Source: Escherichia coli (GTDB lineage: Bacteria; Pseudomonadota; Gammaproteobacteria; Enterobacterales; Enterobacteriaceae). Taken from it: a DNA stretch of 64,000 bases. Positions within the stretch are counted from its first letter, which is position 1. Each line of letters opens with the position of its first letter. The notes under the pieces were generated by a model, which did no database searches, was not told the DNA's origin, and was given only the letters and a program-made list of their open reading frames with translations. The DNA is taken from assembly GCF_003334405.1 (NCBI RefSeq), contig NZ_QOWM01000003.1; one strand, 5' to 3'. Positions 36,732-40,031 of this stretch are shown here, one piece after another. The translations under genes were made by a program, and so were the position numbers.

Positions 36732-37997
36732 TTAACCTCTATGCTTAATTGTGTTTAACCGGGTGCAAAATTTACGCTCGCCAAACCGCACATCATTTTC
36801 AGGAATAATGAAAACGCGGTAATAGCGGATAAAAACAATAATTGCGGTAATCAGGGCCAGCAGCGCGAAAGTAAAATCGAGAACAATGATATATTGCAGG
36901 CCGATGTTCGACAGATAACCGGTAATCAGTGGAATAACAAAGTTAGCCAGTCCACCCATCATCATATAAATACTGGTGACTTTGGCTTTGCTTTTGGGAA
37001 AAAACTCTGACATGACCGAAACGCCGAGCTGTAAAATGCCGCCAGCTGCTGAGAAACCGATAACAAAGGCTCCGGCATTGCACACCAGTGGAGAAGGGTA
37101 CAGGTAGATAATGGCTGCTGTTATTGTTGCCAGTGCAGAGTTAAATACATTAGCCCAGATGGGCCGGACCATTTTTTTCAGTAGTGCGGCAAAAATAAAG
37201 ACACAGACCAACGAGCCCATACTGTAATAAGAGATGGTTTTTAATGCCTCAGCTTCTGACATACCAGCAAAAGCCATCGCATATTTGGGCATCCACACCA
37301 CAATCACATAAAAGGTCGAGAATGCGGCTACACCGAACAGTACCGATGAAACACCTTCCAGCCAGACTAACGGTTTGCTGTTCATTTGCGGTAATTCATT
37401 AGTTACGCTGGCGTCCACCAACTGGCTGGGGAATTTGCTTTTCAACAGCATCAGCGTGATCAGTACAAATAGAATACCCGGAATAATCAGCCCATAGCCG
37501 TACCAGATATTATTGAGCAACATATAGCTCACCAGCATTGGGTAGAACATTTGCCCAAATGACACCATCGCTTTAACCAGTATGACCGCCGAACCAGAGG
37601 CTTTCGGAAAGCATTCCATGAGCGCGGGGTAGCCACCCGTATCCAGCGCTGAGTTAGCGATACCTACGCACACTGCCAGACCGTAGGCGAGAGTTAAATT
37701 CGGGCAAGCGGGAATACCAAAGAAGAATAGCAGATACATTATTACTGCCATTAATATCACCGCCCGACGACCAAACTTATCGGAGATCACACCGAAGAAT
37801 AAAATACTGATCAATCGCCCCAAACCGATACCGGAAATTAAGTAGGCAATGCCCGCGTTGTCAGTGGAAAACTTTTCCGCCAGAGATGACATATTTTGGG
37901 CAAGCGTAATAACACTAATGCCGTGCAGGAAGTAGCTGAAGTAAATACAAAGAACAGCCAGGATAAATGGCGTGCTGAAAGCCTTATTTTGAGACAT
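36732..37997 (-). CDS. ydiN: MFS transporter, substrate unknown
   Basis: 421 aa from [11 protein letters not shown] (the track ORF starts 2 codons earlier). It is polytopic with the MFS loop motif DKFGRR, and is a paralogue of YdiM. Confidence 0.92.
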
Positions 37998-38223
37998 TTT
38001 CACAGCTCCTTGCTGAAAGATAATTTCGTTACCGTACGTATTGTTCTCCGACGGTTTACATAATTACTATACTGAAGATGATTTTCCCTGGGTACATGGC
38101 ATAAAGTTTATGTTTCCAGGAATATTGCATGTCATAGTTTGTTTTTGATCGCGATTTTCCTTAGTTAGCGCAGAAAGAGTTATTTATCCGTAAGATCTTG
38201 CATGACCTGAAAAGAATATTGCA

Positions 38224-39438
38224 TTACCCACCCGGAGCGACATTTTCCTTTAGCGAGTGATGCCGCGTTTTTTTGCGGCTGCGTAAGCCGATAAACAGTG
38301 CCAGTAAAAAACCGATGGCAGCGATGGCGGTATCGAACCACATAATATCGGCAATACTTCTTTGGGACAGATGAGCCGTAATCAACGGAATAGTAAAGGT
38401 CGCAATACTGCCCGCACTGTAATAGATCCCTGTAGCTTTACCTTTAGCGTAAGGGAAACGTTCAGCCATTAACGTCAGGCCAATTTGCACAACACCTCCA
38501 GCAGAGGTAAAACCAATGACAAAAGCAAATATTATCACCACATAAAATGTGGGATGCAGGCAGACGGTAAACAGAGCAATAAATGAGATAAAGGTGTACA
38601 GCATCAGTAATGTTGTTGGGCGAACGGTATTACGAATGAGTGGAGCGGTAATAAATACACAAAGCAGCGAACCCACGGTGTAGATACTGAGTAGTTTGAT
38701 CGACATAGTGTATGACATGCCTGCAACAAATTGTCCGTACTGTGCCAGCCACTGGCTAACCAGATAAAACGTTGCCATTGAGATATAGCCATATAAGGTA
38801 TAACTGGCTAAATAGATAATTGAACAGCGATGTTCCGTAGAGCTGGTGGTTTTCTTTATGACAGGTAAGCGACGACCCGGATGGGGTGGGAACGTACAAC
38901 GGTATAAAAACAGAGCGTTAATAAACATAATGCCTGCAGCAATCATAAAGGACCAACCGAACCACAGTTCAGCCCACACTAACAGGCTAATGATTAGCGG
39001 TAATAAAAATTGTCCGCTGGAAACAAATGCTTTAATTAAAATATTGGCTGTCCCAGGTGAGCGTGGAAAAGCTTCCATCAAACTGGGATAAGTGCCTGCA
39101 TCGAGAAAACTGTTTGCCATTCCCGCCAGAAAGCCAAAAACATAAGCGATAATGATGTTATTGGTCTGCAGGATGCCAAAAAAGAAGGCCATATAGCAGC
39201 ACATCCCGAGCATGATAAAAGGGCGGCGACCAAAGCGATCGGATAATAATCCTGCAAAAAGCAAGACACTTAATCGACCAATGCCCAGCGATGAGATAAC
39301 TATCGAGACACCCGCGGCATTAGTCTGCCAAAGTGTCTCCAGCGAGGCCATATTCAGGCTCATCAAAAGGACGCCCATACCATGCACCAGGTAATTAAAA
39401 TACAACCCAAGTGCGGTAGGGAAATAGGGATTTTTCAT
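38224..39438 (-). CDS. ydiM: MFS transporter, substrate unknown
   Basis: ORF track 404 aa with MFS motif DRFGRR. It is clearly alignable by eye to YdiN. Confidence 0.92.
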   Translation of the reverse strand: MKNPYFPTALGLYFNYLVHGMGVLLMSLNMASLETLWQTNAAGVSIVISSLGIGRLSVLLFAGLLSDRFGRRPFIMLGMCCYMAFFFGILQTNNIIIAYVFGFLAGMANSFLDAGTYPSLMEAFPRSPGTANILIKAFVSSGQFLLPLIISLLVWAELWFGWSFMIAAGIMFINALFLYRCTFPPHPGRRLPVIKKTTSSTEHRCSIIYLASYTLYGYISMATFYLVSQWLAQYGQFVAGMSYTMSIKLLSIYTVGSLLCVFITAPLIRNTVRPTTLLMLYTFISFIALFTVCLHPTFYVVIIFAFVIGFTSAGGVVQIGLTLMAERFPYAKGKATGIYYSAGSIATFTIPLITAHLSQRSIADIMWFDTAIAAIGFLLALFIGLRSRKKTRHHSLKENVAPGG

Positions 39439-39894: not shown

Positions 39895-40031
39895 CGTGTA
39901 ATGGCTGCATGAAATAAACAATAAAATATAAATAACATTATCAGCCTGCTGACGGCTTGAAGAGAGTCACAGTATCTTGTGCAACATTATTGGAAAGAGT
40001 GAGGGGCGAGGTAGCGAAGCGGAAAAATGTT

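Follow-up and report, generated by a model that had tools for sequence, protein, structure and literature searches.

Conserved Direct Repeats Shared by the ydiN and ydiP-ydiQ Control Regions of Escherichia coli, a Candidate Operator of the AraC Type

What controls the ydi genes of Escherichia coli, and is any part of that control held in common? About a dozen adjacent genes of the K-12 strain (ydiL, ydiM, ydiN, ydiB, ydiF, ydiO, ydiP, ydiQ, ydiR, ydiS, ydiT, and fadK) are without a defined physiological role. The question is raised by a 64,000-nucleotide stretch of E. coli DNA (contig NZ_QOWM01000003.1 of assembly GCF_003334405.1), referred to here as the window, in which a short motif occurs three times in the spacer between ydiP and ydiQ and again, in the same orientation and with the same spacings, in the spacer between ydiM and ydiN. 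An earlier note on this DNA had proposed that the two trios mark one regulon, with YdiP, an AraC-family regulator that has so far had no accepted operator, as the obvious candidate for the binding factor. The analysis described here indicates that the motif is a genuine conserved operator common to the ydiN and ydiP-ydiQ control regions, and the trio is probably the operator of a local regulator of the AraC/XylS type, most likely YdiP itself.

The window has the sequence of E. coli K-12 MG1655 (100% identity across 9.5 kb) with the ydi cluster reversed, and gene coordinates are those of the RefSeq annotation of the identical MG1655 sequence. The minus strand carries fadK, ydiT, ydiS, ydiR, and ydiQ, followed by ydiO, ydiF, aroD, ydiB, ydiN, ydiM, and ydiL; ydiP is on the plus strand and is divergent from ydiQ.

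RESULTS

Two Trios of Sites in E. coli

The sites are designated a, b, and c in order of position, with the prefix N on the ydiN side and PQ on the ydiP-ydiQ side (Table 1). The 9-mers on the ydiN side are AATATTGCA at 38121-38129, GATCTTGCA at 38194-38202, and AATATTGCA again at 38215-38223, and those of the first trio are AATCTTGCA at 31010, AATCTTGCA at 31083, and AATCTTGTT at 31104, all as the earlier note had read them. All are on the plus strand, sites a and b are 73 bp apart and sites b and c 21 bp apart in both trios, and the trios are offset by 7111 bp. The extended match of 14/16 positions between the two middle sites is also correct, and the RefSeq coordinates bear out the distances given from the proximal sites to the ydiN and ydiQ start codons. 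One detail has to be amended: the last copy was said to overlap the ydiM stop codon (38224-38226), but the 9-mer ends at 38223 and only the T that follows it lies within the codon.

The arrangement is confined to these two places. Exact copies of AATMTTGCA, the consensus proposed earlier, number six on both strands of the window, four of which are in the two spacers. The pattern ATNTTGCA-N65-ATNTTGCA-N13-ATNTTG has exact matches only at 31011 and 38122 and has none in 100 dinucleotide shuffles; even the 21-bp pair alone is matched only in the two spacers, with 0.02 matches expected. The consensus itself needs revision. Its core, ATNTTGCA, is conserved, but the third site of the first trio (AATCTTGTT) departs from it at two positions, the base written as M is free, and an extension, C.AA.W, lies upstream of the core. 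When the two a-b spacers are compared in register, 15/58 positions are identical (26%), which is the random level, and the trios are therefore not copies of a duplicated segment, in agreement with the earlier note. A repeat element was rejected together with duplication; no Rfam family was matched in either the ydiP-ydiQ or the ydiM-ydiN spacer, RprA being the only family nearby.

Table 1. Coordinates of the sites, conserved blocks, predicted promoter elements, and genes discussed in the text
Feature	Position	Strand	Sequence	Remarks
Half-site PQ-a	31005-31018	+	CCAACAATCTTGCA	118 bp to ydiQ ATG; conserved A-tract follows
Half-site PQ-b	31078-31091	+	CGTACAATCTTGCA	First of pair on ydiP side
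Half-site PQ-c	31099-31112	+	TAAATAATCTTGTT	AATCTTGTTT nearly invariant among genera
Half-site N-a	38116-38129	+	CCAGGAATATTGCA	Nearest ydiN; 124 bp to ydiN ATG
Half-site N-b	38189-38202	+	CGTAAGATCTTGCA	First of 21-bp tandem pair
Half-site N-c	38210-38223	+	AAAAGAATATTGCA	Second of pair; abuts ydiM stop codon
ydiL-promoter half-site	39980-39993 (possible target, 39974-39993)	-	CCAATAATGTTGCA	93 nt from ydiL ATG
Conserved block around PQ-a	30981-31025	-	TTTTTTTGCAAGATnGTTGGnAAnnAAAACAnnTTnnnCnGTCG	Minus-strand consensus
Conserved block containing N-a	38092-38129	-	TGCAAnATACCTGGTAACnAAAACGnCATGyTATGTAgg	Minus-strand consensus; about 40 bp; from alignments of ydiN upstream regions
Putative ydiQ promoter, -10-like	30950-30955	-	TATTTT	Predicted; conserved (GCACACTATTTyCA)
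Putative ydiP promoter, -10-like	31135-31140	+	TATAAC	Predicted; conserved
Putative ydiN promoter, -10-like	38066-38071	-	TATAGT	Predicted; conserved
ydiQ	30128-30892	-		RefSeq annotation
ydiP	31208-32119	+		RefSeq annotation; AraC-family regulator gene, candidate binder
ydiN	36732-37997	-		RefSeq annotation
ydiM	38224-39438	-		RefSeq annotation
LysR-type gene	L027, 17493-18392; L030, 17510-18409; L034, 17468-18370; L041, 18051-18953	+		Related loci

Conservation at Both Loci

A scan with YdiP as the query returned 51 loci in species-representative genomes, and about 45 genomes from more than ten genera were compared (Escherichia, Citrobacter, Kosakonia, Enterobacter, Pseudocitrobacter, Symbiopectobacterium, Pectobacterium, Serratia, Dickeya, Yersinia, and Brenneria). 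Five loci, L044 and L048-L051, which include Shigella flexneri and several records labeled E. coli, were excluded from the comparison. In these, ydiP and its neighbors look truncated or strongly diverged: the match to ydiP is partial in L044 (query residues 1-160) and L048 (32-125), and in L050 and L051 it is 46-49% identical.

The whole ydi cluster is syntenic across the loci, with ydiP syntenic in at least 45 of them. Throughout the genomes compared, from Escherichia to Yersinia, Dickeya, and Brenneria, both loci keep the half-sites in the same orientation, together with the 21-bp pair, and the flanking sequences diverge; both trios are thus conserved in relatives, a check that the earlier note had proposed. 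Every usable ydiP-ydiQ spacer contains WATCTTGCA near ydiQ and WATCTTGCA-N13-AATCTTGTTT near ydiP, an arrangement that persists while the spacer lengthens from 315 to 911 bp, and the distance from site PQ-b to the ydiP ATG is 123-126 bp in most genera, regardless of the length of the spacer. Upstream of ydiN, TATnTTGCA-N13-AATnTTGCA is present with no core mismatches in nearly all genomes, as is the N-b core, ATNTTGCA, and a third site orthologous to N-a was found in all genera examined. Over 893 kb of related loci, 40 of the 42 pairs with at most one mismatch are situated in these two spacers.

The two remaining pairs represent a single orthologous spot inside fadK (27020-27048 in the window, antisense, codons 160-172; TTGTTGTA ... 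ATTTTGCA). This pair is nearer to the consensus in E. ruysiae and C. amalonaticus and decays at synonymous positions in distant genera, because of which it was rejected as an accident of the coding sequence. Separately, a tract of six or seven A residues directly follows PQ-a (31019-31025) in every genus examined; it could be an intrinsic bend or an UP-like element.

The Half-site

An information profile of 78 sites from 13 representative genomes identifies C(-6), A(-4), A(-3), W(-1), A0, T1, T3, T4, G5, C6, and A7 as the conserved positions. The half-site is thus a 14-mer, CnAAnWATnTTGCA, which is asymmetric and has its conserved positions in two patches that are about 9-10 bp, or approximately one helical turn, apart. 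Any base (C, A, T, or G) can stand before TTG, and the position after GCA is variable. No dyad partner is present at any of the six trio sites, the downstream flanks of which match the mirrored half-site at 0-3 of 5 positions.

A position weight matrix was built solely from sites outside Escherichia and then run on the window (128,000 positions). The cores at 31011, 31084, 38216, 38122, and 31105 are within the top six of these positions, with scores of 14.7-21.1 bits; PQ-a ranks first (21.1 bits), N-c third (16.6 bits), and N-a fifth (15.3 bits). Site N-b (GATCTTGCA) has a lower score because of its E. coli-specific flank. Other K-12 DNA, 50 kb and some small pieces, served as the background outside the window, and the highest score among the 50 kb of unrelated DNA is 11.0 bits.

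Spacing by Lineage

As a general feature, only the second number of the 73/21 arrangement stood. Sites b and c are 21 bp apart at both loci in all genomes, except for a value of 22 bp on the ydiN side in the Kosakonia/Enterobacter clade, but the a-b distance depends on the lineage. On the ydiP-ydiQ and ydiN sides, respectively, this distance is 73 and 73 bp in Escherichia other than E. albertii, 73 and 84 bp in E. albertii, 73 and 73-76 bp in the C. amalonaticus group, 73-74 and 84 bp in Kosakonia, 73 and 74 bp in Pseudocitrobacter, 250-251 and 73-74 bp in the C. freundii complex, and 316-337 and 270-379 bp in the Pectobacteriaceae (Symbiopectobacterium, Pectobacterium, Dickeya, and Brenneria), a Serratia-labeled contig, and Yersinia. 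The identical 73 bp at both E. coli loci is therefore a property of one clade. The restriction of the short form to 73-76 or 84 bp (about seven or eight turns) in two unrelated spacers suggests that the sites may have to lie on the same face of the helix when they are close together. Since the distances of the long form change in steps of 1 bp, helical phasing is not claimed there.

In both E. coli a-b spacers there is a GATCGC sequence, which includes a Dam site, at a distance of 19 bp (31019-31040) or 26 bp (38140-38155) from the start of site a. The taxa that have the 73-bp spacing keep TGnGATCG...CAAAAG on the ydiQ side.

Promoter-proximal Blocks and Predicted Promoters

Site a at each locus is part of a longer conserved block that extends on the gene-proximal side, upstream of the -10-like sequences of ydiQ and ydiN (Table 1). 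The ydiQ-side and ydiN-side a-blocks have GTTGG/CTGG-nAAC-nAAAAC in common, and a segment 21 bp from site a resembles site c minus one base (AAAACAGATTG versus AAAACAAGATT), so that the block could hold a weak fourth half-site.

Conserved -10-like sequences allow putative promoters to be placed for all three transcription units. Upstream of ydiN, GTATAnTAAT is conserved in Escherichia, Citrobacter, and Kosakonia, and the predicted promoter would put the N-a core near -66 and the other two sites farther upstream, N-b near -140 and N-c near -160. The predicted ydiQ promoter would put the PQ-a core near -71, and relative to these two promoters the a-blocks would span about -35 to -76. For ydiP, TATAAC, TATACA, or TATATC is found 29-31 nt past the start of site c in all genera; the PQ-c core would then be at about -42 to -35 and PQ-b at about -63 to -56, the pair overlapping the predicted -35 region. 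A scan for consensus sigma-70 promoters detected none on the ydiN strand or for ydiQ, and no consensus -35 sequence is present at any of the predicted promoters. The lack of a recognizable -35 element at the putative ydiQ and ydiN promoters suggests dependence on an activator. A published map of transcription start sites has no start for ydiN, ydiQ, or ydiP and has one for aroD, inside ydiB. The absence of both consensus promoters and mapped starts fits promoters that are silent and activator-dependent.

Regulator Genes beside the Sites

YdiP combines an AraC_binding/cupin domain with an HTH_18 domain. It reaches no curated equivalog cut-off, and its only full-length alignment is with HpaA (E = 4e-13, below the family cut-off). 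Its gene is the only regulator gene that adjoins the motif in every locus. From this adjacency, the AraC-type domains, and the architecture of the sites, we infer that YdiP is the best candidate for the protein that binds them.

A second regulator gene is found in part of the group. Symbiopectobacterium, Pectobacterium, Serratia, Dickeya, Yersinia, and Brenneria have a LysR-type gene, with a product of 299-300 amino acids, between ydiN and ydiM, divergent from ydiN. In these distant genera the b/c pair of the ydiN side is about 120-145 bp upstream of the LysR gene. The E. coli clade and loci L043 and L045 lack the gene; Escherichia, Citrobacter, and Kosakonia have lost it and have the b/c pair intact beside the ydiM stop codon. 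Both loci therefore once had the same layout, in the order operon, site a, b/c pair, and divergent regulator gene. The retention of the pair after loss of the LysR gene indicates that it serves ydiN (or ydiM) and that its binder is still present. In L045 ydiL was not found, and in L043 it is far from its usual position; the sites persist in both.

Extent of the Proposed Regulon

The proposal that one factor co-regulates both loci can be divided. A shared sequence-specific factor is strongly backed by the phylogenetic footprinting, but the evidence gives no support for continuing the ydiN unit into ydiF-ydiO, there being no conserved copy of the motif in the aroD-ydiF spacer. A 12-bit match at 35058 in this spacer was dropped; it is not kept even within Escherichia. 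The spacer (34923-35064) includes a GC-rich hairpin at 35028-35054, and neither it nor the orthologous spacers of loci L008-L026 have a conserved ATNTTGCA. It has conserved repeats of another kind, GAATATTCA...AAATATTCA, in C. amalonaticus and Kosakonia and a palindrome, CCAGATATTCG...CGAATATCTGG, in the C. freundii complex, which suggest that ydiF-ydiO may have a separate operator.

A further half-site is present at the ydiL promoter, where it scores 15.7 bits and ranks fourth in the window. It forms a palindrome, ATGTTGCACAAGAT, and is the only copy of the motif to do so; a CRP-like sequence, TGTGA-N6-TCAAG (TGTGACTCTCTTCAAG; 39971-39956), comes after it. The block is kept in Escherichia, Citrobacter, and Kosakonia and was not seen in Yersinia. 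The ydiL promoter may be another target of the same factor or may carry an autoregulatory site for YdiL.

Published expression data touch on both operons. In shikimate-overproducing strains, ydiQ, ydiR, ydiS, and ydiT are strongly up-regulated (PMC4015609), and ydiN, ydiB, and aroD are up-regulated according to Johansson and Liden (2006), as far as their results are related in PMC4585142. These changes agree, indirectly, with common control that responds to hydroaromatic compounds. A search of the accessible literature found no paper that links ydiF or ydiO to shikimate and none that describes a YdiP operator.

DISCUSSION

Proposed Mechanism

In the mechanism that we propose, one DNA-binding domain of YdiP would read one asymmetric 14-bp half-site. 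Sites b and c, which run head to tail with a spacing of exactly two turns (21 bp), would be occupied as a pair, in keeping with a dimer, and the third half-site, a, would lie in the same orientation within the block of about 40 bp at the ydiQ and ydiN promoters. From the a-block, bound YdiP would switch on ydiQRST-fadK and ydiN-ydiB-aroD, activation being favored over repression, probably in response to a hydroaromatic inducer (shikimate, quinate, or a related compound). The b/c pair on the ydiP side, from its overlap with the predicted -35 region, would mediate autoregulation of ydiP. At both loci b/c may act together with a, by contact between dimers on the same face of the helix in the short form (73 or 84 bp) or by looping in the long form (250-380 bp).

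Alternative Explanations

Several observations weigh against this mechanism. The only direct data on YdiP, two lists from chromatin immunoprecipitation (ChIP), give no binding at the trio sites: ChIP-exo in glucose M9 medium yielded five weak sites (sdhC, uxaB, secG, cspA, and yihQ), none of them in the ydi cluster, and ChIP-seq at 15 °C yielded csp-linked sites, again with none in the cluster. No match of 13 bits or more to the weight matrix is present near the five ChIP-exo peak genes, the gltA-sdhC spacer being partly covered. The sites face in the plus direction at both loci and so have opposite orientations with respect to ydiQ or ydiN and to ydiP, which a simple class II model leaves unexplained. 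All of the positions relative to promoters are predictions. Among Yersinia species the a-b distance takes values of 331-337 bp in steps of 1 bp, and strict phasing in the long form is thereby disfavored. The ChIP results are weak evidence because both studies used C-terminal tags, beside the helix-turn-helix domain, and included no candidate inducer.

The same ChIP lists favor the possibility that the motif is a real cis-element of one regulon but is bound by another protein, either YdiL or an unlinked or global factor of the Enterobacterales. We consider this unlikely, with YdiL as the main rival to YdiP. Its gene is part of the cluster, and YdiL is a member of the Aca2/YdiL family (Pfam PF08965) with a solved dimeric helix-turn-helix structure (1S4K), for which a role as a DNA-binding autorepressor has been suggested (PMC8434428); the palindromic version of the motif, moreover, is at its own promoter. 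Dimers of the Aca2 type bind inverted repeats, however, whereas the six trio sites have no dyad and repeat head to tail at 21 bp, and the sites outlast the loss or displacement of ydiL in L045 and L043. For a global factor, none of the consensus sequences compared by eye (sigma-54, CytR, CRP, FNR, ArcA, TyrR, and RcsAB) fits. YdiP is ranked first because the layout of the sites has the hallmarks of araC-araBAD.

A different view, that the three sites do not act together, appears less probable still. Site a would be mainly a core-promoter element (a -35-like TTGCAA or an UP-like A-tract) or would be bound by a second protein, b/c would serve the divergent regulator gene as its operator (ydiP, or the LysR gene in distant genera), and the agreement in the 73-bp distance in E. 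coli would be incidental. It would account for the constant distance of b/c from ydiP and the 120-145 bp that separate the pair from the LysR gene, for a-b distances that range from 73 to 379 bp, and for the additional conservation of about 25 bp in the a-block that b and c do not share. Against it, site a bears the same 14-bp half-site as b and c, including the upstream C.AA patch; the b/c pair of the ydiN side is kept with no core mismatches in three genera that lack the LysR gene, where it must serve ydiN or ydiM; and the short form takes values of 73-76 or 84 bp, differing by about one helical turn, in both of the unrelated spacers. That the recurrence is due to chance, or is left over from a duplicated segment and now functionless, has hardly any likelihood. 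The motif is short and its consensus was chosen after the fact, but no matches are expected from the shuffled sequences, the spacers are identical only at the random level, and the retention of the sites in more than ten genera with diverging flanks already contradicts both versions.

Physiological Implications

A broader proposal, which is tentative and carries less confidence than the assignment of the operator to YdiP, is that ydiN-ydiB-aroD, ydiQRST-fadK, ydiP, and possibly ydiL-ydiM form a YdiP regulon that would constitute one inducible, coenzyme A (CoA)-dependent pathway for hydroaromatic compounds of the quinate/shikimate type in the Enterobacterales. Uptake and dehydrogenation would feed a CoA-transferase or ligase, an acyl-CoA dehydrogenase, and an electron module of electron transfer flavoprotein (ETF) and ETF-quinone oxidoreductase (ETF-QO), in an organization analogous to the carnitine cai/fix system, and the ligand of YdiP would be a hydroaromatic compound. 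Such a pathway would link a quinate/shikimate module to the ETF/acyl-CoA module, which has so far been only an engineering tool for reverse β-oxidation, and the regulon, if real, would be quite unlike the cold-shock role proposed for YdiP from the ChIP data. An operator common to two or three promoters of the cluster offers a concrete and inexpensive test of its regulation.

Comparison with Known Systems

Several known types of site were compared with the motif and rejected. For a sigma-54 promoter (TGGCAC-N5-TTGCA), inspection of both strands at all six sites found no GG 11 bp upstream of the GC of TTGC. The CytR operator, which lies between tandem CRP sites, has TTGCA preceded by a conserved G and followed by TT in its GTTGCATT octamers; in the ydi motif the base before TTG is free, that after GCA varies, and the invariant AT falls outside the octamer. 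The consensus sequences of CRP, FNR, ArcA, TyrR, RcsAB, and LysR (T-N11-A) do not fit by eye. The inverted-repeat operator of a dimeric helix-turn-helix protein is excluded by the lack of dyad symmetry in the trio sites; the likeness to Aca2/YdiL operators is limited to the palindromic form at the ydiL promoter, and the six trio sites differ from them in being direct repeats.

The features found are those of AraC/XylS-type operators: head-to-tail spacing of about 21 bp, a half-site with two patches, and an adjacent divergent gene of the AraC family. In its predicted role YdiP resembles RhaS/RhaR, MelR, XylS, and HpaA, which are cupin-type regulators with tandem sites, local inducer-dependent activators of catabolic operons whose sites reach the -35 region, but unlike them it fits no curated equivalog cut-off. 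The closest parallel is araC-araBAD, which is distinguished by asymmetric head-to-tail half-sites two turns apart, a pair over the promoter of the regulator gene, a composite site that reaches -35, and a distant half-site. Like that system (I1-I2, O1, and O2), the ydi loci have a divergent gene for an AraC-family protein whose ligand domain is of the cupin type, asymmetric half-site pairs in head-to-tail orientation 21 bp apart, one pair by the predicted promoter of the structural genes and another over that of the regulator, an extra distant half-site, and a promoter-proximal half-site of poor consensus. The ydi arrangement differs in the sequence of the half-site (CnAAnWATnTTGCA), in the use of one layout at two loci 7 kb apart, in the location of the strong tandem pair on the regulator side, distal to the structural genes, and in its distances of 73-84 or 250-380 bp. 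With these differences, it would provide a new example of an AraC-type operator for a regulator that has been uncharacterized.

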